Origin: Gemmatimonadales bacterium
GTDB lineage: Bacteria; Gemmatimonadota; Gemmatimonadetes; Gemmatimonadales; GWC2-71-9
DNA: 64,000 bases
Reading direction: 5' to 3'
NCBI GenBank assembly: GCA_965248285.1
Contig: CBDFJJ010000010.1
Location: 133,062 to 197,061, forward strand
Both the position numbers and the translations under genes were made by a program. This document shows, piece by piece, positions 5,805-63,434 of this stretch. Each line of letters starts with the position of its first letter. The stretch's first letter is position 1. Under the pieces are notes generated by a model. The model ran no database searches. It worked only from the letters and a program-made list of their open reading frames with translations, and was not told the DNA's origin.

Positions 5805-6043
5805 CCGTTGTTGTAAGGTTGTTGATATCGACGACACATAAAAGCTCCTTGACCCCCGCAGGGCAGGGGAAAAGAAAAGCCTCCTTGCGGGGGCTCTGTC
5901 CTGATGGACTAAGACACCGCCGGTCTGACGCAGCCCTTTGTGGTCGGTGCCCTGGCGCGGTAAGATTAATCAACTGCTATCATACAAGCTAACGTTTCTT
6001 GGTGTATGTCATTTATATACAATGACTTATCACTAACACTCTT

Positions 6044-7458
6044 AGAGGTATTGTCAAATGTTGTGGATCGGTGAGTGATCAAGCGGCGACCTTCCGATCC
6101 GTGTTCTCTTTGTCAGTTTCCTGCATACCATCTTTGAATTGTTCTCCTGCCAACACCAGGGGGAGAAGTTCTGGAGCGTTGAGTTTCCGCCAACGTTGCT
6201 GCGCCATCTCCAACAGCTTGAACGCCATCGTCAGCCCTTTGCTCCGCGAGCCCGCTCCCTTGGTCACGCGCTGTCGTAACCGGACCGTCGCGAAGGCAGA
6301 CTCGATCACGTTCGTCGAACGGATATGTTTCCAATGCTCGGCCGGAAAATCAAAATGGCTGTACAGGTGCTCCTGGTCCCGCGTGAGCGAGGCGACCGCC
6401 TTGGGATACTTGGCCGCATACGCGGTGGCGAAACGCTCGACCAGCGCCTCGGCCTCCGCACGCGACTCCGCATACATCATCTCGCGCAACACCCGCTTCG
6501 CCGCCGGCTGCAAACGTTTCGGAAGCTTGTCCAACACGTTGGCCATCCGGTGCACCCAGTCGCGCTGCTGCCGCGTCGCCGGCCACACCTCCCGCACCGC
6601 TGCCCAGAACCCCAACGCGCCATCCCCAATCGCCAGCACCGGGGCCCGCATCCCCCGACGCTTCAGATCGCGCAACACCGCCAACCAGCTCTCCGTGCTC
6701 TCCCGATAGCCGTCCTCCACCGCGATCAGCTCTTTCGTCCCATCCGCCCGGGCGCCCAGCATCACCAGCGTACACAGCCGGTCGGCCTCGAGGCGAATGT
6801 TGAAGTGGATCCCGTCGACCCAGACGTACACATACTCCCGATCACGCAGATCACGCTGGCGAAACGCCTGGTATTCCCCCTCCCACGCCGCCGTCAATCG
6901 CGTGATCGTCGTCGGGGACAAGCCTGATGCGTCCTCACCCAACAAGATCGGCAACGCCTCGCGAAAATCTCCCGTCGACAGACCGCGCAGATACAACACC
7001 GGCAAGACCTCCGCCACCTTCGGCGACCGCCGCATATAGGGAGGCAAAATCTTGCTCGTGAACTGCGCCCGCATACGACGGTCATGCACCCGTGGCGCGG
7101 TCACCGTGACCGTACCAGCACCCAGCGTCACCTTGCGGGGACGGGCTTTGCCATTGCGCACCACCAGGGCGCGGCCCTCTCCGTCTCGCTCAATCCGATA
7201 TCGCTCGACATACTCGGTCACTTCCGCGTCCAACGCACTCACCAGCATCCGCCGAGCTCCCTCTCTGGCAAGCTCGTCCAGGTCTGCGAACAGTCCGTTC
7301 CCTTTGCTCTCAGACGCATTCTCTATTATCCTCAACATCGGTGGCGTGTCCTTTCTCCGGTCGTCACAACCGGATCTCGTGTACGTTTCAACTGACTACA
7401 CGAAAGGATACGCCGCCTTTCTCATTCCTCCAATCCACAACTTTCGAAAATAACTCCC
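6044..7458 (-). mobile_element. IS256-family insertion sequence, full length
   Basis: Imperfect terminal IRs (GAGGTATTGTCAAATGTTGTGGATCGG vs GGAGTTATTTTCGAAAGTTGTGGATTGG). Second copy at 15098-16217. I could not find a TSD. Confidence 0.8.
6079..7338 (-). CDS. IS256-family (mutator-type) transposase
   Basis: 419-aa ORF with typical IS256 N-terminus (LDELAREGARRMLVSALDAEV) and DDE region. Confidence 0.95.
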   Translation of the reverse strand: MLRIIENASESKGNGLFADLDELAREGARRMLVSALDAEVTEYVERYRIERDGEGRALVVRNGKARPRKVTLGAGTVTVTAPRVHDRRMRAQFTSKILPPYMRRSPKVAEVLPVLYLRGLSTGDFREALPILLGEDASGLSPTTITRLTAAWEGEYQAFRQRDLRDREYVYVWVDGIHFNIRLEADRLCTLVMLGARADGTKELIAVEDGYRESTESWLAVLRDLKRRGMRAPVLAIGDGALGFWAAVREVWPATRQQRDWVHRMANVLDKLPKRLQPAAKRVLREMMYAESRAEAEALVERFATAYAAKYPKAVASLTRDQEHLYSHFDFPAEHWKHIRSTNVIESAFATVRLRQRVTKGAGSRSKGLTMAFKLLEMAQQRWRKLNAPELLPLVLAGEQFKDGMQETDKENTDRKVAA

Positions 7459-7509
7459 CGTGGGGGGCGACTCCCACCCCACCCCTTATCTAAGACCGGG
7501 AGGCTGCAA

Positions 7510-8884: not shown

Positions 8885-8977
8885 TGAGCACCGTAAACCT
8901 GGATCTACTCCGGCTGGCTCACACCACTACCTCACCGCACCGACGCGAGCCCCTTCTATCCCTGGCCGGAAAACTGG

Positions 8978-9400
8978 CTAGAAAAACGGGTCGACGGCCT
9001 TGACCAACTCGGGCCGCGCTGGCCGGACCTTGATGTAAGCGTTCTGTTCCTCGGCATCGGTTTCAGTTTGGGTTCGCGACCCACCACCAGCCGCCCCGAT
9101 CGTCAGGACGCGCTCACCGACGACGTGCCAAACGATCTCGACGTGTCCAATCTTCGACCCGCGAAACCAGAAGAGTAGGCAGCCCGGTTTGAGCCTTGTC
9201 ACCTCACGGCCCTGAAAACGCTTGGCGAGTCCGTCGGCCGTCCAATCGCCTTGCGCCGGTAGGATTCCGACCGACTTGAGGTGCTCGATCACCAAGCCCG
9301 AGCAGTCGAAGCCCGCGATCGGGTCGTCGCCGCCCCAGCGGTACGGCTTGCCGAGCTCTCGCTCCCAGAGGTAGAGCGCGATCGAGCGGAGGTTCTTCAC
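8978..9400 (-). CDS. NlpC/P60-family peptidoglycan hydrolase (endolysin), prophage L
   Basis: PYRWGGDDPIAGFDCSGLV catalytic Cys motif and GHVEIV His. About 95% identical to 56616-57038. Confidence 0.85.
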   Translation of the reverse strand: MKNLRSIALYLWERELGKPYRWGGDDPIAGFDCSGLVIEHLKSVGILPAQGDWTADGLAKRFQGREVTRLKPGCLLFWFRGSKIGHVEIVWHVVGERVLTIGAAGGGSRTQTETDAEEQNAYIKVRPARPELVKAVDPFF

Positions 9401-15097: not shown

Positions 15098-16217
15098 GAG
15101 GTATTGTCAAATGTTGTGGATCGGTGAGTGATCAAGCGGCGACCTTCCGATCCGTGTTCTCTTTGTCAGTTTCCTGCATACCATCTTTGAATTGTTCTCC
15201 TGCCAACACCAGGGGGAGAAGTTCTGGAGCGTTGAGTTTCCGCCAACGTTGCTGCGCCATCTCCAACAGCTTGAACGCCATCGTCAGCCCTTTGCTCCGC
15301 GAGCCCGCTCCCTTGGTCACGCGCTGTCGTAACCGGACCGTCGCGAAGGCAGACTCGATCACGTTCGTCGAACGGATATGTTTCCAATGCTCGGCCGGAA
15401 AATCAAAATGGCTGTACAGGTGCTCCTGGTCCCGCGTGAGCGAGGCGACCGCCTTGGGATACTTGGCCGCATACGCGGTGGCGAAACGCTCGACCAGCGC
15501 CTCGGCCTCCGCACGCGACTCCGCATACATCATCTCGCGCAACACCCGCTTCGCCGCCGGCTGCAAACGTTTCGGAAGCTTGTCCAACACGTTGGCCATC
15601 CGGTGCACCCAGTCGCGCTGCTGCCGCGTCGCCGGCCACACCTCCCGCACCGCTGCCCAGAACCCCAACGCGCCATCCCCAATCGCCAGCACCGGGGCCC
15701 GCATCCCCCGACGCTTCAGATCGCGCAACACCGCCAACCAGCTCTCCGTGCTCTCCCGATAGCCGTCCTCCACCGCGATCAGCTCTTTCGTCCCATCCGC
15801 CCGGGCGCCCAGCATCACCAGCGTACACAGCCGGTCGGCCTCGAGGCGAATGTTGAAGTGGATCCCGTCGACCCAGACGTACACATACTCCCGATCACGC
15901 AGATCACGCTGGCGAAACGCCTGGTATTCCCCCTCCCACGCCGCCGTCAATCGCGTGATCGTCGTCGGGGACAAGCCTGATGCGTCCTCACCCAACAAGA
16001 TCGGCAACGCCTCGCGAAAATCTCCCGTCGACAGACCGCGCAGATACAACACCGGCAAGACCTCCGCCACCTTCGGCGACCGCCGCATATAGGGAGGCAA
16101 AATCTTGCTCGTGAACTGCGCCCGCATACGACGGTCATGCACCCGTGGCGCGGTCACCGTGACCGTACCAGCACCCAGCGTCACCTTGCGGGGACGGGCT
16201 TTGCCATTGCGCACCAC
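15098..16217 (-). mobile_element. IS256-family copy 2, truncated
   Basis: Matches 6044-7163 of copy 1. Identity ends at ...GCGCACCACC (16217). Confidence 0.85.
15132..16217 (-). pseudogene. IS256 transposase lacking the first ~58 codons
   Basis: The 361-aa ORF is identical to residues 59-419 of 6079-7338. Confidence 0.85.
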
Positions 16218-17275
16218 CCCGGAACATTTGTTACGCGCGTTATTGCTGCAGGTGGTGTATACGATCCGGAGCGAGCGGCAGCTGATGGAGCAGCTCGATT
16301 ACAACATCCTGTACCGATGGTTTGTGGGGTTGAATCTGGACGACGCGGTGTGGGTGCCGACGGTCTTTACGAAGAATCGGACGCGGCTGGTCGAGGGGGG
16401 CATCGCGGATGCGTTTCTGGCCGAAGTGTTACAGGAGGCGGAGCGGCGGGCGTTGTTGTCGAATGAGCATTTCACCGTCGACGGGACCTTGCTGGACGCG
16501 TGGGCGAGTCAGAAGAGTTTTCAGCCGAAGGCCGGCACCCGCCCGCCAACGGACGATGATCCGGGGAATCCGAGCGTGACGTTTCGCCAGGAGAAACGGA
16601 CGAATGCGACGCATGCGTCGCGGACGGACCCGGAGGCGCGGTTGACGCGGAAGAGTGGGGGGCAAGGCGCGCAATTGGCGTACTTGGCGAGTGTGTTGAT
16701 GGATAATCGGCACGGGCTCGTGGTGGCGACCGACGTGACGCAGCCCGGCTACGAGGCGGAGTGTGCGAGTGCGCTGGCGATGGTGGGGAGCTTACCGCCG
16801 ACGGCCCGGCGTCGGACGTTGGGGGCGGACAAGGGTTATGATCGGTGCGGGTTTGTCGACACGCTGCGGGCGTTGGGCTGGACGCCCCACGTCACGCCGA
16901 ACGTGCACCGCACGCGGTTGCGGAGCGCGGTGGATGGCCGGACGACGCGCCATCCCAGCTATGCGATCAGTCAACGGCAGCGCAAAAAAGTGGAAGAGAT
17001 CTACGGGTGGGGCAAGACGATTGGGTTGTTACGCAAACTCCGACATCGCGGGACCCCGCGGGTCGGGTGGGTGTTTACGTTCACGGCCGCGGTCTACAAT
17101 CTGATGCGGATACGCACCCTGACCCTGGCCGGAGGCAGCCCCTGATGGGGCAGTGTGGGCCGCATTCGTCACGCCGACCGCACCGCGGGGGCGGTAATAG
17201 GGGACCGCACGCTGGTACACCGTCGTGTTACCCGGACAAACGCGGCTCACCATCAATTTTTCCGCAACCTGCTAG
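16218..17275 (+). mobile_element. IS5-family copy B, 5'-truncated, abutting IS256 copy 2
   Basis: Frame starts mid-domain (PEHLLRALLLQVVYTIRSERQLMEQLDYNILYRWFVGL). The 346-aa track ORF is a read-through chimera. Confidence 0.8.
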
Positions 17276-18069
17276 AGAATGCCCGCCAACTCGAAAGACA
17301 GGGGGGCAATCTCCATTTTCACCACGCGCCGCGGATCGGCCTTCGAAACCATGAATATCCATGGGAGTTGGCCGCTCATGTTGACCTGCCAAGTGTCGAA
17401 CTCGCCTGCGGGGACGGTCACCATGCCGCCGTCGGTGACGTTTAACGTCTCTTGCGAAAATGTTTGCGTGGGGGGCTGAAAAATGCCCAGCGTAAAGCTC
17501 GCCCCGTCTGCCAAGGCCATGGTTGGCACGATCGTGCTCAGCATGTCGAGATCGTAGACCCGGGTACCAAACACGGTGTCGATCGTGGCTTCGATGGCTC
17601 CGGAGACGGATCCGGTCACCCGGCCACCCTCGTCGTACGTCAGCTGCGCCTGAATCGTCTGTCCCATCTGGCTGGCCGCCTGTTCATATGTGATGGGGTC
17701 CAAGGAGGCAGCATCGAGCACGTACTCTACGGATTGCCCTCCCAGCGCGCCGACTTGGATTTCGGATTTGACCGAGAAGACCGGACGATCGCCATGCATG
17801 CTGCTTTCAATGGTTCGCGTCAACGCGCCGAGCAGACTGCCTTGTGTCATGACCGAAAAGGAATCGCGCCCGACCACCAACTGACTCGGATCGAATACGA
17901 TCGCTTGATTGTGCAGAATCGCATTCATCTGCCCGCTGGCGCGTTCAACGAGTTGCAGCGTTCCGGGCTTGTTGAGCCGATAGTCACCGAACGCGATGGG
18001 CTGCTGGGCGGCGGACGGCGCTGTGGCAAGGAGGGAGACAAGAGCGGCGAAGAGGGCCAGACGGAACAT
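17272..18069 (-). CDS. secreted protein, unknown function (C-terminus possibly IS-truncated)
   Basis: Signal peptide MFRLALFAALVSLLATAPSAAQQ. The stop codon (17272-17274) lies within the last bases of IS5 copy B. Confidence 0.5.
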   Translation of the reverse strand: MFRLALFAALVSLLATAPSAAQQPIAFGDYRLNKPGTLQLVERASGQMNAILHNQAIVFDPSQLVVGRDSFSVMTQGSLLGALTRTIESSMHGDRPVFSVKSEIQVGALGGQSVEYVLDAASLDPITYEQAASQMGQTIQAQLTYDEGGRVTGSVSGAIEATIDTVFGTRVYDLDMLSTIVPTMALADGASFTLGIFQPPTQTFSQETLNVTDGGMVTVPAGEFDTWQVNMSGQLPWIFMVSKADPRRVVKMEIAPLSFELAGIL

Positions 18070-56359: not shown

Positions 56360-56619
56360 CCAACATGATGATCCCGTCGGTGAACACGTGTCCGAAGTGC
56401 GGTGAGCCGATTCCCCAAGTGGTGGACCGGCGCCTCGTCGGCGACAAGATCCCCCGGATGATCACCGGGAGCCTCGTGGCGTTGGCAGGCGTGGCCGGGT
56501 TGTTGCTCGAGCGGATCGGCGGGCCGGTGGCCGTGCCGTTGATTGCCTTTGGGCTCGGCACGGCGTACACGCACAGCTTTACCGCCGTGTTGCGCGGCTG
56601 GAAGAACGGAAAGAAGTGA
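56356..56619 (+). CDS. zinc-ribbon two-TM lysis-cassette protein
   Basis: Identical protein to 9397-9660. Confidence 0.55.
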   Translation: MTNMMIPSVNTCPKCGEPIPQVVDRRLVGDKIPRMITGSLVALAGVAGLLLERIGGPVAVPLIAFGLGTAYTHSFTAVLRGWKNGKK

Positions 56620-57038
56620 AGAACCTCCGCTCGATCGCGCTCTACCTCTGGGAGCGGGAGCTCGGCACGCCGTACCGCTGGGGCGGCGACGACCCGATCG
56701 CGGGTTTCGACTGCTCGGGGTTGGTGATCGAGCACCTTAAGGCGGTCGGGATCCTGCCGGCGCAAGGCGATTGGACGGCCGAGGGGCTCGCCAAGCGGTT
56801 CGAGGGCCGCGAGGTGACCAAGCTCAAACCGGGCTGCCTACTCTTCTGGTTCCGCGGCTCGAAGATCGGGCACGTCGAAATCGTATGGCACGTGATCGGG
56901 GAACGCGTCCTGACGATCGGGGCGGCTGGTGGTGGGTCGCGCACCCAGACTGCAGCCGACGCCGAGGAGCAAAACGCCTATATCAAGGTCCGGCCAGCGC
57001 GGCCGGAGTGGGTCAAGGCCGTCGATCCCTTTTTCTAG
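56616..57038 (+). CDS. NlpC/P60-family endolysin, prophage R
   Basis: PYRWGGDDPIAGFDCSGLV and GHVEIV motifs. Confidence 0.85.
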   Translation: MKNLRSIALYLWERELGTPYRWGGDDPIAGFDCSGLVIEHLKAVGILPAQGDWTAEGLAKRFEGREVTKLKPGCLLFWFRGSKIGHVEIVWHVIGERVLTIGAAGGGSRTQTAADAEEQNAYIKVRPARPEWVKAVDPFF

Positions 57039-57273
57039 CCAGTCTTCCGGCCAGGGATAGAAGGGGCTCGCGTCGGTGCGGTGCGGTGGTGGTGTGAGCC
57101 AGTCGCTGTAGATCCACTGAGTGATGCCCACAAAAAGGTATGGGTCAGTTTGAAATCTGACCCTGTTGCCCTCCCGCCCGTAGGTCCCCTAGCTTTCAGC
57201 TATGCCGAAGAAGAAACCCGAACCGGGCAAGCTCCGCGAGGATGTTGTGCCTCTCTCGCTACCCGCTCTGGTG
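57030..57273. repeat. 244-bp inverted repeat, left arm (partner 60807-61050)
   Basis: I reverse-complemented the right arm and compared it base by base: identical over 244 nt. Confidence 0.9.
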
Positions 57274-57535
57274 CCGGGGCGTTCTGCCTGAGTAGATAGA
57301 GCCGGTACGCAGTATCAAGATTCATCCAGAACTGAGCGCTAGTGCCCAACGCGGCACTGAAAAGCACTGCTGCGTCTGGCGACAGGGTGCGCTTGCCGGA
57401 GATGATACTACTTACAAAGCTCTGGTGGCGGCCAATGATTCTCGCAAACTGCTTTTGTGTCCAACCCCGCTCTTCCAACTCGTCCCGTAAGAACTCACCA
57501 GGGGGGAACGCTTCAGCCGGTGCAAATTCCGTCAT
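57200..57535 (-). CDS. HigA-type HTH antitoxin; last ~24 codons read into the repeat arm
   Basis: GEFLRDELEERGWTQKQFARIIGRHQSFVSSIISGKRTLSPDAAVLFSAALGTSAQFWMNLDTAY. Confidence 0.7.
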   Translation of the reverse strand: MTEFAPAEAFPPGEFLRDELEERGWTQKQFARIIGRHQSFVSSIISGKRTLSPDAAVLFSAALGTSAQFWMNLDTAYRLYLLRQNAPAPERVAREAQHPRGACPVRVSSSA

Positions 57536-57550
57536 GCTGCTCTCCCTCCG

Positions 57551-57848
57551 TTAGTGGTAATCTTCAATCGCAATTATTCCAACCTTCTTGTTTGGGCTCT
57601 CGCCTCTGAGTTCAACCACAAGTCGCCATTGTTTGTTGATACGAAGAGATCGCTGGTGCTTGCGTTTCCCTTTCAGTTTTTCGAAGCGTAGCGATTTGTG
57701 CTTGTATAGGTCCCGTTCGTCGGCCGCCGCTCGGATAGCCTGCATCACCTTTCGGAATCCTCGATCTACGGCGTCCCCCGAACCACCCGTAGCACCACGA
57801 TCAGCCTCTAGTTTTTGAAGGGCGGCGTCCCTCGTGCTCTACTTCCAT
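57551..57848 (-). pseudogene. HigB-type toxin with an apparent 1-nt frameshift
   Basis: C-terminus LRFEKLKGKRKHQRSLRINKQWRLVVEL...IEDYH. The N-terminal homology (DAALQKLEAD...FRKV) has no start. The ATG at 57846-57848 is one frame off. CCC run at 57829-57831. Confidence 0.6.
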
Positions 57849-57945
57849 GTCCAAGGATAGTCGATTACCGTAAAATTATCGGTAGTGGGTCATTTTGAAT
57901 TGTTGAGGCTCTGCGCGACGAGCTTGCCCCTGTTAGCTTTCATAT

Positions 57946-58200
57946 ATGCCGAAAAAGAAGCCCATTGCGAAAACCAAGCTCCGTCCCGACATGAACGAGA
58001 CGGCGCATCGCGTGATGCTGGAAGCGACAGGCCAGGTCCCTAAGACTGTCCCGCCCGGTGAGCGCGAGGATAGCGAAAAAAACCCCGAGGCGGTGAAACG
58101 TGGGGCGAAGGGCGGCGAGGCCCGGGCTAAGGTACTGACCGACGAGGAGCGCGAAAGAATCGCGCAGACGGCCGCCCTGGCGCGGTGGAAGAAGGACTAG
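57946..58200 (+). CDS. small basic protein (MPKKKP..., C-terminal KGGEARAKVLTDEERERIAQTAALARWKK)
   Basis: 84 aa. Its start context is homologous to the truncated ORF inside both 244-bp arms. Confidence 0.5.
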   Translation: MPKKKPIAKTKLRPDMNETAHRVMLEATGQVPKTVPPGEREDSEKNPEAVKRGAKGGEARAKVLTDEERERIAQTAALARWKKD

Positions 58201-58688
58201 TAGTCCGACCCGGACTCAGCCATTCCGCGTGCGATCCGACGCAGCTCCACGTCGAGGGTGAAGTCTTTCTCGACAGTGATAGGTTCTTGGTCGGGATTGA
58301 TACGATTCCAGTGGTCCATGTCGAAGGTAAGCTGGGTGATGTCGCCGACGGTCTGTTCACGGCGCATCGTCTTCGACGCCTCCATCGGTGTCCGGTCGGC
58401 CTCGTCGATGTCGATCCACAGGTGTAGCTGGTCCCGATTCTCGTCGGTCACGACGTACATGTGGTTGACCCGGTAAGGCTCTCCCGTCTCGGGGTCCGTC
58501 CGCGTCTCCTCGCGCGCCGCTTGGGAGAATCTACGGACGAGTTGTTCACGCGGGTCCTTCGGCTCCGGCAACGGATACCCCATCGTATCAATGGCCCAGG
58601 CGACCACGGCCTTCATATCCACCGACGGATTACCGGTCTCGTCTCGGTAGTGACGAATGAGTTTCTGCATCTCTTGATTCTGGCTCAT
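58197..58688 (-). CDS. hypothetical 163-aa protein, no family recognised
   Basis: Second gene of an operon with the XRE-M78 fusion (20-nt gap). Confidence 0.55.
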   Translation of the reverse strand: MSQNQEMQKLIRHYRDETGNPSVDMKAVVAWAIDTMGYPLPEPKDPREQLVRRFSQAAREETRTDPETGEPYRVNHMYVVTDENRDQLHLWIDIDEADRTPMEASKTMRREQTVGDITQLTFDMDHWNRINPDQEPITVEKDFTLDVELRRIARGMAESGSDY

Positions 58689-58708
58689 TGTGCTTGGTCC
58701 TGAAGTGA

Positions 58709-59854
58709 CTAGGAAACGATTGGAGCGACATCACCCCATCCGTCGTGCATGACGTTGGGCAGGACGACTGACCGCACCCTGGCCAAATGCTTTTGAAAGC
58801 GGTCGTATCGCTCTGTGGCGTGTTGGATCTGGCCAGCCACTAGGCCAGGGTGAACATTCACCAGTTTAGCAAAGCTCAGAAGGTCCCTTTCGGTGAATAT
58901 CGGGGCCTTGCACGCTATGAATTGATTTAGGGTCTTCGTTGGAACGCAAAAATCAGCCGCAGCCTTGTTGGCGATACGTTCCTGTTCCTCTACGTCGGGG
59001 CCGATGCCCGCTCGATCGCCTTCAAGTTCGGCGTCGAAAGCGACGGTGGCCCGGCCATCTCCACGCAGGACGTGCTCACATTCGTGACGGAGCACGAACC
59101 AAAAGTTATCGATGCGGTCGTGCCTCATTGTCAGGCCAATCACCGGAGACCGATCGTCGAGCCAGAAGCACACCCCATCAATCTTGGCCGACTTCAGCGA
59201 CTCAACGATCACTAGTCTGATCCCCGCTTCGGCCAAGATGCGTGGAGCCCTCCGTGCCTCTTCGGCTGAAGCCAATAGGGTACGGAGCTGCCTGATCGCC
59301 CTTTGCATCGCCTTCGTCGAGTATCGGGGCACCACCATCACGGTGGCGATCTGCCTGACGCGATACAGCCAGGCAAGCTGTGCCGGGGTCACGTCGCTGT
59401 TGACGGAGGTCTTCTTCGTTGCGTGCGGCAAGATCTCGATGTTGGATGGTGACTCCACGTCGAAAAAACTGGCCAGCGCGGATTCCACTTGCTCGGTGTT
59501 CTTCATGTCGTCGATAGCCAACCATCCTCGGCAAGTCATCTCTTTGACAGGTAGGTCGCCGTATAACTGAGCACGTCGAGCCCGACTTGGGTCGGGCATT
59601 GTCTCGATGCGTGCGCGAGCCAGGTCATAGTTCTTTTGAAGGCCCAGGAAGGTTTCGGCTGGCACACCAAAAACCTCCGACAAAGCGAGCGCCTTGGGGG
59701 CATCGAGGGGTTGCCTGTCGGTGGCAATCCGGGCCACATGGGCACGACTTATTTCCAAGACCGTCGCGAGCACTTCTTGGGTCCAGTCCTTCTGCGAAAG
59801 AAGCCACCGGATGAGTTGCCCTGGCGTCTGGAAGTCCGGCGGGTTGTTTGACAT
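58709..59854 (-). CDS. HTH (XRE/HigA-like) fused to ImmA/IrrE-type M78 metallopeptidase
   Basis: N-terminus WTQEVLATVLEISRAHVARIATDRQPL...FLGLQKNYDL. C-terminus has HEXXH (RHECEHVLRGD). Confidence 0.75.
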   Translation of the reverse strand: MSNNPPDFQTPGQLIRWLLSQKDWTQEVLATVLEISRAHVARIATDRQPLDAPKALALSEVFGVPAETFLGLQKNYDLARARIETMPDPSRARRAQLYGDLPVKEMTCRGWLAIDDMKNTEQVESALASFFDVESPSNIEILPHATKKTSVNSDVTPAQLAWLYRVRQIATVMVVPRYSTKAMQRAIRQLRTLLASAEEARRAPRILAEAGIRLVIVESLKSAKIDGVCFWLDDRSPVIGLTMRHDRIDNFWFVLRHECEHVLRGDGRATVAFDAELEGDRAGIGPDVEEQERIANKAAADFCVPTKTLNQFIACKAPIFTERDLLSFAKLVNVHPGLVAGQIQHATERYDRFQKHLARVRSVVLPNVMHDGWGDVAPIVS

Positions 59855-59927
59855 GGGAGGAATGTATGCGATGTTCGAAATAATACAACAACATTGCTTG
59901 TGCTTAGCAGTTGACTATATTATAGAC

Positions 59928-60797
59928 ATGAACAGACTGTCAGATGCCAAGCGCGCAGCAATCCTACGGTGCCTCACCGAAGGCAATTCCATCCGGTCCA
60001 CGGCCCGCATTACCGGCACCGTGAAAGCCACCGTCCTAAAGTTGCTGGTCGAAACGGGCGAGTTCTGCTCGAACTATCAGGAGCAAGTTCTACGGGATCT
60101 GGACTGCAAGCGTATCGAAGCCGACGAAATTTGGGCCTTCATCGGAGCGAAACAGAGGAACCCGAAGAAGGCGGGGGACGGTGACATTTGGACGTTCACG
60201 GCTCTCGACCCCGATTCCAAGCTGATGGTCGCATGGCTCGTTGGCGACAGAAGCCCCAAGAGTGCCACCATTTTCATGAAGGATCTGGCGTCACGAGTCT
60301 CGGACAAGATCCAGCTAACGACGGATGGTCACGGGATGTACCTGAGCGCCGTACGTGCGGCTTTCAGTTTCCTCGACGTAGACTACGCACAAGTTGTGAA
60401 AAAATACGGCCAGCTAGGGACCACAGAGGAACGGCGGCGTTACTCACCACCGACATGCACCGGGGCCAAGAAGGTCAGAATGATCGGCAACCCCAACCCG
60501 GACCTGATCTCAACATCCATGGTCGAGCGCAGCAACCTACAGCTTCGGATGTCTTCACGGCGATTCACCCGCTTGACGAGCGGATTCAGCCGGAAGGCCG
60601 AGAATCACGCCCACGCGGTCAGCCTGACCTTCATGGCGTACAACTTCTGCACGCTCCACGGGACCCTCACGAAGGCGCGCGGTGGCCTCAAGACGACCCC
60701 AGCGATGGCCGCTGGCCTTACAAAGCGCCCTTGGAAGATTGAGGACGTCCTGGCCCTCATGGATGGGGCGTACCGTACGACCGCGAATTCAAAATGA
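59928..60797 (+). CDS. IS1-family transposase (single-ORF type)
   Basis: N-terminal HTH (AAILRCLTEGNSIRSTARITG), then ADEIWAFIGAKQ...WTFTALD...TTDGHGMY. Confidence 0.8.
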   Translation: MNRLSDAKRAAILRCLTEGNSIRSTARITGTVKATVLKLLVETGEFCSNYQEQVLRDLDCKRIEADEIWAFIGAKQRNPKKAGDGDIWTFTALDPDSKLMVAWLVGDRSPKSATIFMKDLASRVSDKIQLTTDGHGMYLSAVRAAFSFLDVDYAQVVKKYGQLGTTEERRRYSPPTCTGAKKVRMIGNPNPDLISTSMVERSNLQLRMSSRRFTRLTSGFSRKAENHAHAVSLTFMAYNFCTLHGTLTKARGGLKTTPAMAAGLTKRPWKIEDVLALMDGAYRTTANSK

Positions 60798-60806
60798 CCC
60801 ACTACC

Positions 60807-61050
60807 CACCAGAGCGGGTAGCGAGAGAGGCACAACATCCTCGCGGAGCTTGCCCGGTTCGGGTTTCTTCTTCGGCATAGCTGAAAGCTAGGGGACCTAC
60901 GGGCGGGAGGGCAACAGGGTCAGATTTCAAACTGACCCATACCTTTTTGTGGGCATCACTCAGTGGATCTACAGCGACTGGCTCACACCACCACCGCACC
61001 GCACCGACGCGAGCCCCTTCTATCCCTGGCCGGAAGACTGGCTAGAAAAA
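60807..61050. repeat. 244-bp inverted repeat, right arm
   Basis: See the left arm. Confidence 0.9.
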
Positions 61051-61435
61051 CGGAACTCGCAGCACGAGACCTAAGTTCCTCGTCGGTCAACACGCTGTCG
61101 GGCGCTTCCCGTAAAATCGCTCCGGCCCTAACGACCGCCTCAGACAACACCGCGATCGCCTCCCCTGCCCGTGTGACTCGCTCCATGCCGTTCTTGCCGT
61201 AGGAGACGTAAACGGGACCGTTGACGACACTAGAGGGCATCGGCCCACCGTCTGAAAACACCCTCAGCGGTGCCCCTATGAGCTTGGCTAGTTGCCGTAC
61301 AAACTCCGGCGGGACCTCGTTCCGTCCTCGCTCCCACGACTGAACGGTACTACGGCCACGAAAGACGACGTCCCCAAAGTCGTCCTGGCTCATATCAAAG
61401 ATGTTCTTCCGGACGTCGCGAAGTCGCTCTCCCAT
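60983..61435 (-). CDS. XRE-family HTH regulator (CI-like), 3' end replaced by the repeat arm
   Basis: MGERLRDVRKNIFDMSQDDFGDVVFRGRSTVQSWERG. Alternative TTG start at 61480. From 61050 downward the frame translates the arm. Confidence 0.6.
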   Translation of the reverse strand: MGERLRDVRKNIFDMSQDDFGDVVFRGRSTVQSWERGRNEVPPEFVRQLAKLIGAPLRVFSDGGPMPSSVVNGPVYVSYGKNGMERVTRAGEAIAVLSEAVVRAGAILREAPDSVLTDEELRSRAASSVFLASLPARDRRGSRRCGAVVV

Positions 61436-61473
61436 ATCCTTTGCTGGACGCCAAGTTTGAGCCACATTCCCTC

Positions 61474-61524
61474 TTGACAATCTCTAATATTGAGCATATT
61501 ATAGTACCATAAGCTCAACATTAG
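61474..61524 (+). promoter_or_regulatory. sigma-70-type promoter with flanking operator half-sites
   Basis: TTGACA (61474-61479), 17 nt, TATTAT (61497-61502). Inverted CTAATATTGAGC (61484-61495) / GCTCAACATTAG (61513-61524). Confidence 0.55.
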
Positions 61525-62189: not shown

Positions 62190-62465
62190 GATCGCTCGCG
62201 CCCAACGATACATCGCCGCCGGCGACCAGCGGTTTCTCGCGTGAGCCAGACCGAACTCGTGCTCTCGTTTGTGCTCGTGGCTCTGCGCCGGATGGGTGCT
62301 CGGCTACCGCTACCACGTGCTCAAGGTGCGGGAGATACAGGCCCGTCGCATCAAGCGGATGGCGTTCGAGTGGCTGTGCTGGCGCGCCGCCGTGCAGGAG
62401 AGAAGAACGGATCAAGCAGGCCCAACAGGAGGCTCGCGAGCGTGGTGCTCAGGAGGAAGAGGGGG

Positions 62466-62987
62466 CTATTTGCAGTGGTTTAGAGATCCGATCGCTTCCG
62501 GGGCACCGTTCAGGCCGAATACCACGGTGTACGTGTTTGCGCTGTGTCCAAAACGCAACGCGACACGATTCTGACCTTGGGCTAGTGCCTCAACGAACTT
62601 GCTTGCCGTCTCGTCCAAAGCAGCCATTCCGCCATCCATCGACCTCCAATTCTCGGTGACTGGCTCATTCCGATCGGTGCGCCAAGTCATCGATCGATTC
62701 CATGTCTCGCCGATGATATCGAGCCGAATTGACGAGTTGCTCAGTGAACTCTGGTCGACCATTACGCCCACGCTGAATGTGCCCTCGACGCAATAAATCG
62801 CCAAGATCCACTTTTCGGCCTCGTCCTGCGTGACGGCCCGCGACGCGTTGGCGTCCGTGATCGGATCTAACGACTCTTGGTAGAACCAATCGCCCATGGC
62901 TACGATATCCTGGCCGTTGGCAATATCCGGAAGCAACAAAAATGACACGCAGGCCCCTAGGGTCCGAAGGAAAAGGGATCGTTTCAC
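62466..62987 (-). CDS. secreted protein, unknown function
   Basis: Signal peptide MKRSLFLRTLGACVSFLLLPDIANGQ. GTGA-coupled to the upstream gene. Confidence 0.5.
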   Translation of the reverse strand: MKRSLFLRTLGACVSFLLLPDIANGQDIVAMGDWFYQESLDPITDANASRAVTQDEAEKWILAIYCVEGTFSVGVMVDQSSLSNSSIRLDIIGETWNRSMTWRTDRNEPVTENWRSMDGGMAALDETASKFVEALAQGQNRVALRFGHSANTYTVVFGLNGAPEAIGSLNHCK

Positions 62988-63187
62988 CGATCGTCCTTCC
63001 GAAAAATCAGGAGGAAAACGTCTTTGTCGCCCAGCCCCATAAACCGAGCGGTGTCCCCGGCAACGATCCGATCAAGCGTCCATCCGTCTTTTGCGGTGTG
63101 ATTAATGAGGTTCTCGAGGTCCCCAGAAGTGAGTCGGCCCGAGATGAACGATTTCTTTTTCTTCTCGATGACTTTGTAGGTAGGCAC
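62984..63187 (-). CDS. DUF4177-like small protein
   Basis: VPTYKVIEKKK...LINHTAKDGWTLDRIV...FLLIFRK. GAGAGGG RBS before the GTG at 63187. Confidence 0.55.
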   Translation of the reverse strand: MPTYKVIEKKKKSFISGRLTSGDLENLINHTAKDGWTLDRIVAGDTARFMGLGDKDVFLLIFRKDDR

Positions 63188-63434
63188 AGTGCCCTCTCGG
63201 TCGCGTTGATTAGGCCATCCGGCCCCACATCTCGTGAAACACCCCTGTAACACCCCCCCAGCAGAGCCCACCTTAAATTTCCTATATTCATAGGGTTACG
63301 CGCCTGGCAGGGGTGTAACACTCCTGCCCAGGCTGCTGTCCCCAGCTCCGAAGATGCACCACGGGACAGCGAGGTCAAGGCGGGCCGTCTCTGGCCCAAA
63401 TCTCAGAGGAATTGTTGACAATGCGTCAGAGCCC

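Follow-up and report, generated by a model that had tools for sequence, protein, structure and literature searches.

The phage invertible segments Mu G/Gin and P1 C/Cin, and bacterial invertons, recombine at crossover sites of 14–34 bp, with a serine or tyrosine recombinase encoded alongside, and generate alternative gene fusions. Tandem-inversion-duplication (TID) in Salmonella is the comparison system for fold-back rearrangements. Alternative or sister-chromatid transposition, as in IS10 adjacent deletions and maize Ac/Ds, in which the ends of a transposon act on a sister copy, yields flanking inverted duplications together with deletions; to our knowledge it has not been documented for IS1-family elements. 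In IS1/IS26-type intramolecular replicative transposition, attack in cis gives an adjacent deletion and attack in trans an inversion (He et al. 2015, PMC4471558), and for the IS1 family both replicative transposition and the deletion of neighbouring DNA have been reported (PMC4471558). The templated-insertion junctions of MMBIR provide a further comparison (PMC8421209). Here we compare with these systems an inverted repeat in a prophage of a Gemmatimonadales bacterium, located in a 64,000-nucleotide stretch of one contig (the window), and we lean toward reading it as a rearrangement scar of a resident IS1-family element rather than as a switch or a bracketed insertion.

In the assembly, positions 57026–57273 and 60807–61054 are reverse complements over 248 nt with a sole mismatch, at 57029, and 57030–57273 equals the reverse complement of 60807–61050 exactly (244 nt, perfect); such identity is not expected by chance at all. 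The two arms of this 248-bp inverted repeat are separated by 3533 bp (57274–60806). An earlier reading made from the letters of the DNA (the sequence-only reading) had claimed perfect 244-bp inverted repeats around HigBA and an IS1-type transposon. The repeats were borne out, with the extension to 248 nt, and the spacer was found to contain HigA-like and HigB-like ORFs and an IS1-family element.

The left arm begins within the endolysin gene (56616–57038, + strand; Pfam NLPC_P60, 8.7e-10), the final gene of the late operon, of which the stop codon and the last 9–13 nt fall inside the arm; paralogues of this endolysin occur in five other prophage copies. The arm (57026–57273) adjoins the lysin as it does in the prophage copies C13 and C9 and in prophage L of the window, and it runs without a break into the HigBA remnant, as in C8. 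Judged from these paralogues, the left arm is native and composite. After the lysin end comes a conserved, non-coding post-lysis element of ∼100 bp (57037–57136), with copies in several of this genome's prophages and in the relatives G003 and G007. We considered this element as a small protein gene (MGITQWIYSDW...) and rejected it on the frame-breaking indels between copies. The third part, 57137–57243 (+ strand), is a relic, the left end of an older passenger IS of the IS1 family; it aligns to 57881–57990 and consists of a degenerate left inverted repeat, GGTATGGGTCAGTTTGAAAT, and the start of an orf84-like gene (MPKKKP..., 14 codons). Homology to C13 ends exactly at 57137, and 57137–57184 also occurs in copy A of C8. 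The last 30 nt belong to a truncated antitoxin gene. The arms hold no known RNA, because Rfam gave no match over 56.5–62.6 kb, and no tRNA genes were found.

The antitoxin remnant (57200–57535, − strand; Pfam HTH_3) is of the HTH-M78, HigA type. It comprises 97 native codons, from 57535 down to 57244, followed by 14 foreign codons, so that what the sequence-only reading called "HigA" amounts to the opening 97 codons of an HTH-M78 gene for a 380-aa protein. A full-length 380-aa paralogue lies at C10:244034–245176, and homology to it begins at 57244, which places an old breakpoint at 57243/57244. The gene had been described as cut at the inner junction of the repeat; its true truncation lies 30 nt inside the arm. 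Next to it, the HigB-like toxin gene (57551–57841, − strand) is a pseudogene that matches the Pfam HigB-like profile over positions 33–78 only; in translation its N-terminus is broken by an in-frame stop and a frameshift, and the N-terminus of the C10b copy is MDMEVEHEDAALQ. The region 57200–57841 thus contains no intact type II HigBA module, with the toxin N-terminus interrupted and the antitoxin reduced to 97 of 380 codons.

The paralogous prophage on contig C8 carries the arm, the HigBA remnant and the IS contiguously (57037–58292 at 99.7% identity), and the C10b paralogue, from 57244 on, is continuous across 57273/57274. Because of the C8 arrangement, the left inner junction is not a breakpoint. 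Of the proposal that both inner junctions are breakpoints, the right one holds (60806/60807, the right terminus of the IS) and the left one does not. The small ORF said to be cut after codon 24 is a chimaera of 14 codons from the first gene of the relic IS and 10 antisense higA codons. To call the spacer a cargo bracketed by arms is likewise misleading, as the left arm and the cargo form one continuous ancestral sequence in C8; on this comparison, the cargo was not inserted between the arms. We also rejected the arms as the ends of an inserted element with terminal inverted repeats, since no duplication flanks them and, in other prophages, the sequence of the left arm is native to the region downstream of the lysin.

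The IS1-family element is a 2926-bp passenger-carrying IS (57881–60806, + strand) with perfect 21-bp terminal inverted repeats, GGTAGTGGGTCATTTTGAATT, at 57881–57901 (IRL) and 60786–60806 (IRR). It contains orf84 (57946–58200, + strand), orf163 (58197–58688, − strand), the HTH-M78 gene orf381 (58709–59854, − strand) and the transposase gene (59928–60797, + strand). The transposase matched Pfam DDE_Tnp_IS1 at 37.1 bits (cut-off 24.1 bits), and its best NCBIfam match, transpos_IS1, reached 59 bits against an equivalog cut-off of 100 bits; because of this lower score we class it, from its profile matches, as a distant member of the IS1 family. The terminal repeats begin with GGnnnTG, the terminus consensus of the IS1 family in ISfinder. 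We take the nearest kin to be the passenger-carrying IS (tIS) of the IS1 family, perhaps the ISMhu11-like group in ISfinder. The element resembles them in having an IS1-type transposase encoded by a single ORF, termini of the form GGnnnTG and passenger genes enclosed by the inverted repeats, and its C8 copy and G033 homologue also have the 8-bp duplication. Exact-protein look-ups with orf163, orf381, the transposase and the chimeric CI-like protein described below returned no record, and the passenger set (orf84, orf163 and HTH-M78) is, as far as we checked, undescribed.

The termini of the IS were defined by the 21-bp repeats, by target duplications in C8 and G033 and by copies between other flanks. 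In C8 the 8-bp duplication AAATTATC is intact and C10b has the empty site; a homologue in G033 is flanked by the 8-bp duplication CGACGCTG, and an identical element sits between different flanks in unrelated samples. The window copy has the same left flank as C8, AAATTATC, and its right flank is CACCAGAG; the right target duplication is absent. The genome contains the window and C8 copies only, one of them in this contig. The locus is not a composite transposon, having one intact IS and, in each arm, only a 107-bp relic IS end.

The right arm (60807–61054) is a secondary, inverted copy of 57026–57273. As the sequence-only reading had noted, it starts exactly at the right terminus of the IS: the last IRR base is joined to the complement of 57273 at junction J2 (60806–60807), with 0 nt of microhomology and no target duplication. 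Since IRR is fused exactly to the arm, the target duplication is lost. At its far side, the junction J-outer (61051–61055) is homology-free. Perfect identity stops at 61050 and CI-type sequence starts at 61055; the intervening CGGA (61051–61054) fully matches neither parent and includes 1–4 nt of filler, with at most an ambiguous 1–3 nt of microhomology around it. Beyond this junction lies a CI-like XRE repressor gene (60983–61480, − strand; Pfam HTH_31) composed of 142 native codons and 23 arm-encoded codons. Its native protein is 162 aa, and the C13 paralogue (358836–359324) ends ...SRAASAGRAAKKTRDVARKRKKKAG, by comparison with which the last 20 codons are gone; the earlier statement that the CI-like 3' end had been replaced was thus correct.

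The right arm holds the older junctions 57136/57137 and 57243/57244 and the lysin stop codon, and the arms are identical; it was therefore copied from the left-arm locus itself. At four positions where C8 differs, it carries the left-arm alleles. The identity of 100% also indicates that the event was recent. These features bear on a route in two or more ordinary steps, in which a copy of the lysin-downstream region was already present, inverted, on the right side of the IS (taken from some other prophage copy or part of a larger inverted duplication), a canonical cis adjacent deletion fused IRR to it at 57273, and a separate deletion trimmed the copy to 248 bp beside the CI-like gene. IS1-family elements are known to cause adjacent deletions (PMC4471558), the contig does have prophages in inverted relative orientation (L and R of the window), and there are further inverted duplications in the genome. 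We nevertheless consider the stepwise route unlikely: it still needs an extra, unexplained illegitimate junction, the stretch from the lysin to 57273 is contiguous only in the window's own left arm, and the arms are 100% identical against 2–8% divergence of the other prophage copies. Two simpler candidates were rejected as well. Insertion of the IS into one copy of a pre-existing inverted repeat, as at C8:58973/67482, does not fit the ancestral left flank with its C8-type duplication; and the relic IRL at 57137 was not the partner end in the event, since the right arm continues past it into old flank.

A prophage segment of a few kilobases between inverted repeats does resemble the phage invertible segments, and the arms, or the ∼100-bp element, might be crossover sites of a programmed inversion, driven by RecA or a phage recombinase, that toggles expression of the toxin-antitoxin remnant or the IS genes. 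The 248-bp arms are long enough for RecA recombination, and the conserved element recurs at module boundaries of several prophages. Its copies are, however, direct and not inverted in all other prophages, and the identity of the arms reaches 137 bp past it into relic-IS and higA debris. There is no invertase or integrase within or beside the segment, and a scan of the ten ORFs from 56.6 to 62.2 kb turned up no recombinase domain. The short crossover sites, adjacent recombinase and alternative gene fusions of the Gin/Cin systems have no counterpart here. The arms do not differ anywhere within the ORFs that span the junctions, and inversion would therefore be silent: it would alter no ORF, and the tails of the truncated higA and CI-like genes read alike in both orientations, with no gene ends or promoters exchanged. 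The enclosed toxin-antitoxin genes are, moreover, broken. A functional invertible segment is accordingly highly improbable, although RecA-mediated inversion of the 3.5-kb spacer is, to judge from the arms, physically possible.

Returning to the IS scar, an origin that the sequence-only reading had offered in general form, as the record of a fold-back or repair event, fits best: the right arm is an inverted copy, precise at the IS terminus and homology-free on the other side. The ancestor would have resembled C8, with the lysin, the post-lysis element, the relic IS end, the truncated higA and higB, the IS with AAATTATC on both sides, and a flank Y. The IS of the window has lost the duplication and the flank at its right terminus, which is joined, to the base, to an inverted copy of the 248 bp whose end lies 608 bp leftward of the IS; after 244–248 nt, this inverted copy meets the 3' end of the CI-like gene at a joint that lacks homology. 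We infer a nick or cut by the transposase at IRR, followed either by transfer of the IRR 3' end to the opposite strand at 57273/57274, an incomplete trans attack, or by capture of a sister-copy fragment at the break. The second end may then have been sealed by illegitimate joining, through Ku-dependent end joining or a second template switch, and this sealing would have removed flank Y together with the final 20 codons of the CI-like gene. An intact Ku is encoded in the genome.

This course shares features with each of the described systems and matches none fully. As in IS1/IS26 intramolecular transposition, one IS end keeps its flank and the other, without a duplication, is fused precisely to nearby DNA; as in the trans geometry, that end is joined to the opposite strand, and the transposase is of the IS1 family. 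A completed trans event, in contrast, leaves a second, inverted IS and inverted 8-bp duplications, whereas here there is one IS and no duplication, only 248 bp are inverted, and a second, homology-free junction is present. No second inverted IS copy brackets the inverted DNA, the genome having the window and C8 copies only, and no split inverted target duplication was found, the left-flanking AAATTATC being ancestral and CACCAGAG not its reverse complement. A completed trans inversion is excluded because the contig has one IS copy. The short inverted nearby copy at a deletion junction, with copies perfectly identical, is like TID and MMBIR; those events start at microhomology or quasi-palindromes, but J2 has 0 nt and lies exactly at a transposon terminus, and the microhomology at both junctions that marks a TID/MMBIR template switch was not found. 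An inverted duplication beside a transposon end, with a deletion, also recalls sister-chromatid transposition, which would be expected to give an open-ended duplication and not one of 248 bp. We know of no one-step IS1 pathway that gives such a product.

We searched for the junctions in Logan k=31 contigs from the four runs of the source sample (X1–X4), in which 248-bp arms hide orientation. A 60-nt k-mer contig spans 60777–60836, from the IS end into the arm, at depth 5 in X1 and depth 3 in X2. J2 was thus found in two of the four runs; because k − 1 = 30, this proves only that IRR is joined to the reverse complement of 57244–57273, 30 nt of the arm. J-outer, one of the four junctions, is without independent read support: 61051–61055 was in no contig and no indexed 31-mer in any of X1–X4, yet J2, both flanks and a lysin-type continuation (TCGACGGCC...) were seen. 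Neither junction was matched in exact-pattern scans of metagenome contigs from JGI.

Because J-outer was found in no k-mer contigs, an assembly or minor-variant problem is possible. On this alternative J2 is real, but there may be a mis-join to the CI region at 61054/61055, with the arm after the IS continuing into an inverted lysin or late region or belonging to a minor variant, and the 248-bp repeat would be absent from most cells. Contigs pass 61055 unbranched into the C13-type flank in X1–X3, continuing into the C13-type native CI 3' end, and the locus is composed of segments 96–99.9% identical to four other prophage copies. On the other hand, J-outer is non-homologous, so that repeats could not have led an assembler to create it, and it must be present in reads. 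The runs reach a genome depth of only about 2–5x, Logan contigs drop minor branches (the C10b empty site gives no break in X1–X3), and contig retrieval missed X1 contigs that the word index shows to exist. Moreover, the arms have roughly twice the depth of single-copy sequence, and it would be a coincidence for a random chimera to fall at precisely 248 nt from J2. We therefore regard such an artefact as doubtful, though a serious alternative to the IS scar.

A bolder form of the IS scar can be proposed, in which one aborted, one-ended trans transfer by the IS1-family transposase, with Ku-type sealing, made the perfect inverted repeat de novo. With a relic IS1-type terminus in each arm (at 57137 and at 60943), that single event would also have created a 3.8-kb unit (57137–60943) with 137-bp perfect terminal inverted repeats, perhaps mobilisable by the resident transposase and flippable by RecA. 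We consider this whole proposal rather unlikely. The genome is saturated with ISs (∼230 and ∼108 matches for two of them), and a genome-wide scan revealed several other IS-adjacent inverted repeats, none of which was verified to have the same anatomy.

Taken together, the inverted repeat does not look like a DNA switch built for a purpose, and no long-standing question is opened by it. Provided that the assembled structure is real, it would be a clean natural case of an IS making a long perfect inverted repeat beside itself without being duplicated, and the same event would have destroyed the C-terminus of the prophage repressor and deleted neighbouring DNA. The paralogous loci, which here show a scar, urge caution in reading inverted repeats of prophages and MAGs as "switches." The setting looks like a decaying prophage in an IS-riddled genome, with the repeat a mobile-element leftover, and it illustrates the decay of prophage accessory regions in an IS-saturated genome.

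Direct comparison of the two arms (57026-57273 and 60807-61054), which a repeat search returned as 248 nt each around a 3533-nt spacer, gave one mismatch, at 57029. The perfect 244-nt repeat (57030-57273 versus 60807-61050) reported in the sequence-only reading is therefore exact, and such a repeat cannot arise by chance. The spacer holds a HigA-like HTH ORF (57200-57535, minus strand), a HigB-like ORF (57551-57748, minus strand) and an IS1-family element. The element is bounded by 21-bp inverted repeats without mismatch (GGTAGTGGGTCATTTTGAATT; 57881-57901 and 60786-60806) and encodes orf84, orf163, a 381-aa HTH-M78 peptidase protein and a DDE_Tnp_IS1 transposase. Consensus scans returned only ordinary promoter-like and terminator-like matches.

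The source genome (6.45 Mb in 13 contigs, 93% complete, 3.9% contaminated; window at C10:133062-197061) carries at least six related prophage copies: window L, window R, C10b (contig C10, 239–264 kb), and those on contigs C9, C8 and C13. The region around the repeat is a mosaic whose segments each have a close paralogue elsewhere in the genome: 50758-57050 in C10b (98.6% identity), 57037-58292 and 58712-60806 in C8 (99.8 and 99.95%), and 61055-62449 in C13 (99.4%). The IS load is extreme, and the genome is IS-saturated; a 1.06-kb IS (window 16217-17276 and 1-553) gave ∼230 BLAST matches and an IS256-like IS (6038-7460) ∼108, and a 595-bp element (e.g. C13:358032-358626) has ∼35 copies. Further short perfect inverted repeats occur at C3:7768-7954/11889-12075, C8:58973-59412/65865-67725, C10:101800-102273/103558-104031 and C10:208529-209312/213625-214408. 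Several of these adjoin IS ends, and in the C8 case an IS256-like insertion (9-bp duplication) interrupts one of the two 440-bp repeat copies.

On C8, the equivalent of 57037-58292 is uninterrupted, so that arm, HigA′, HigB′ and IS left end form a single stretch, and the left flank of the window IS is of the C8 type. Thus, contrary to the sequence-only reading, there is no breakpoint at 57273/57274, and the segment was not inserted as cargo between two arms. Within the left arm, 57137-57243 aligns with the IS left end (57881-57990) and shows a degenerate IRL (GGTATGGGTCAGTTTGAAAT) followed by an orf84-like gene start (MPKKKP...); C13 homology stops exactly at 57137. This stretch is what remains of a related but older element, truncated after 14 codons. 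Homology to the C10b antitoxin gene, which encodes a 380-aa HTH-M78 protein, starts at 57244; the window and C8 “HigA” retain codons 1–97 of it and break off at 57243/57244, 30 nt within the arm. The HigB-like toxin gene lacks a proper N terminus, and the toxin-antitoxin pair in the window is debris. In C10b, higB is split by an IS256-like insertion (C10:242524-243783) whose flanks overlap by 9 bp (window equivalent 57659-57667); each copy of the module seen is inactivated, by a different route every time.

The right arm was recently copied, in inverted orientation, from the left-arm locus, because it reproduces base for base the lysin stop codon and three junctions of greater age (lysin/element, 57136/7 and 57243/4) that are all contiguous only in the window's own left arm, and both arms carry the same alleles at four positions differing from the C8 copy. 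Its inner junction (60806/60807) falls exactly at the IS terminus, as the sequence-only reading had placed it, with no microhomology. At the outer junction, perfect identity stops at 61050, CGGA fits neither parent fully, and CI-type sequence begins at 61055; the arm does replace the 3′ end of the CI-like gene, which keeps 142 codons followed by 23 arm codons, compared with the 162-aa native protein on C13.

Read evidence came from k=31 contigs of four runs (X1–X4) of the source sample, in which genome depth is ∼2–5x. A 60-nt contig covers the inner junction (60777-60836) in two of the runs, at depth 5 in X1 and depth 3 in X2, and none does in X3 or X4; it proves only that the IRR is joined to 57244-57273 (30 nt), because that stretch is exactly k-1 long and common to C10b. 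For the outer junction, we weighed an artefact or rare variant: no contig in X1–X4 covers 61051-61055, even at 88% likeness, and no run matched its junction words in the word index, although lysin-type continuation and C13-type CI flank are both present. However, depth is low, run contigs lose minor branches (the C10b empty site makes no break in X1–X3), the arms are covered about twice as deeply as single-copy sequence, and an assembler cannot invent a homology-free junction from repeats. Contig placement also missed X1 contigs listed by the word index: 62446-63240 had zero depth in X1 by placement, although 100% of sampled 62450-63430 words were indexed for that run. Negatives from placement are unreliable here. 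We consider an artefact or rare variant at the outer junction unlikely. Scans of JGI metagenome contigs for exact patterns of both junctions gave no match, and exact-protein look-ups (chimeric CI′, orf163, orf381, transposase) found no record. The assembly does contain the repeat.

The C8 IS copy has an 8-bp direct repeat, AAATTATC, at both flanks, and C10b is an empty site with one AAATTATC. The window IS shares the C8 left flank; its right flank, CACCAGAG..., is the inverted arm. The terminus at 60806 is set independently by the IR, by the duplications on C8 and in G033 (another genus of the order), and by copies elsewhere, the same 2.9-kb element lying between different flanks in unrelated samples X5, X6, X7 and X10. 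Copies (57881-60806; C8:227207-231862; L009:1224-4313 in G033, 65–68% identity, 8-bp duplication; other sites in unrelated metagenomes) always carry an HTH-M78 peptidase gene, a 155–163-aa partner and a small first gene; on C8, a 569-aa DNA-methyltransferase-like ORF replaces the 163-aa gene.

The arms include a conserved element (57037-57136) that follows lysis genes in several prophages here and in two genus relatives (87–90% identity). It is ∼85–100 bp and non-coding, has two conserved boxes but varies in the middle, and lies directly 3′ of unrelated endolysin genes; indels between copies disrupt any reading frame. Copies lie at 57037-57136, 60944-61043 and 8900-8989, at C13:349263-349373, C13:353100-353182, C10:241520-241619 and C10:63991-64092, and in the relatives at L010:1501-1583 and L004:1501-1584. 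Toxin-antitoxin cassettes lie between direct copies of the element in the same prophage; on C8, a 2.4-kb cassette of higB, higA(HTH-M78) and orf189 is enclosed by a perfect direct repeat of 30 bp. The element may serve in module exchange or as an att-like site.

An invertible switch is very unlikely: no recombinase domain was found among ORFs scanned from 56.6 to 62.2 kb, element copies in every other prophage are direct, and inversion would alter no protein, since the two arms do not differ within any junction-spanning ORF. RecA-mediated flipping of the spacer is possible as a by-product. Of the two ideas first raised, a repair event fits better than flip-flop inversion.

A precise joint between an IS terminus and nearby DNA, from which the target duplication has disappeared, is the mark of transposase action. 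Members of the IS1 family are reported to transpose replicatively and to cause deletions next to themselves; when they act in “trans”, an end attacks the opposite strand, and the product gains another IS copy in inverted orientation as well as inverted duplications (PMC4471558). The geometry here is likewise “trans”, but the contig holds one copy of this IS and just 248 bp are inverted; therefore, the event was not a completed canonical transposition. The sequence displays the product alone, from which we infer an event initiated at the IS end, as a one-ended strand transfer or, alternatively, a transposase break capturing or copying a sister fragment. The other end would then have been closed by illegitimate joining; the genome has an intact Ku gene, so end joining is available, and no microhomology favoring a template switch was found. 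The repeat is probably a scar left by the IS in an accessory region of a prophage, one that is decaying within a genome saturated with ISs.
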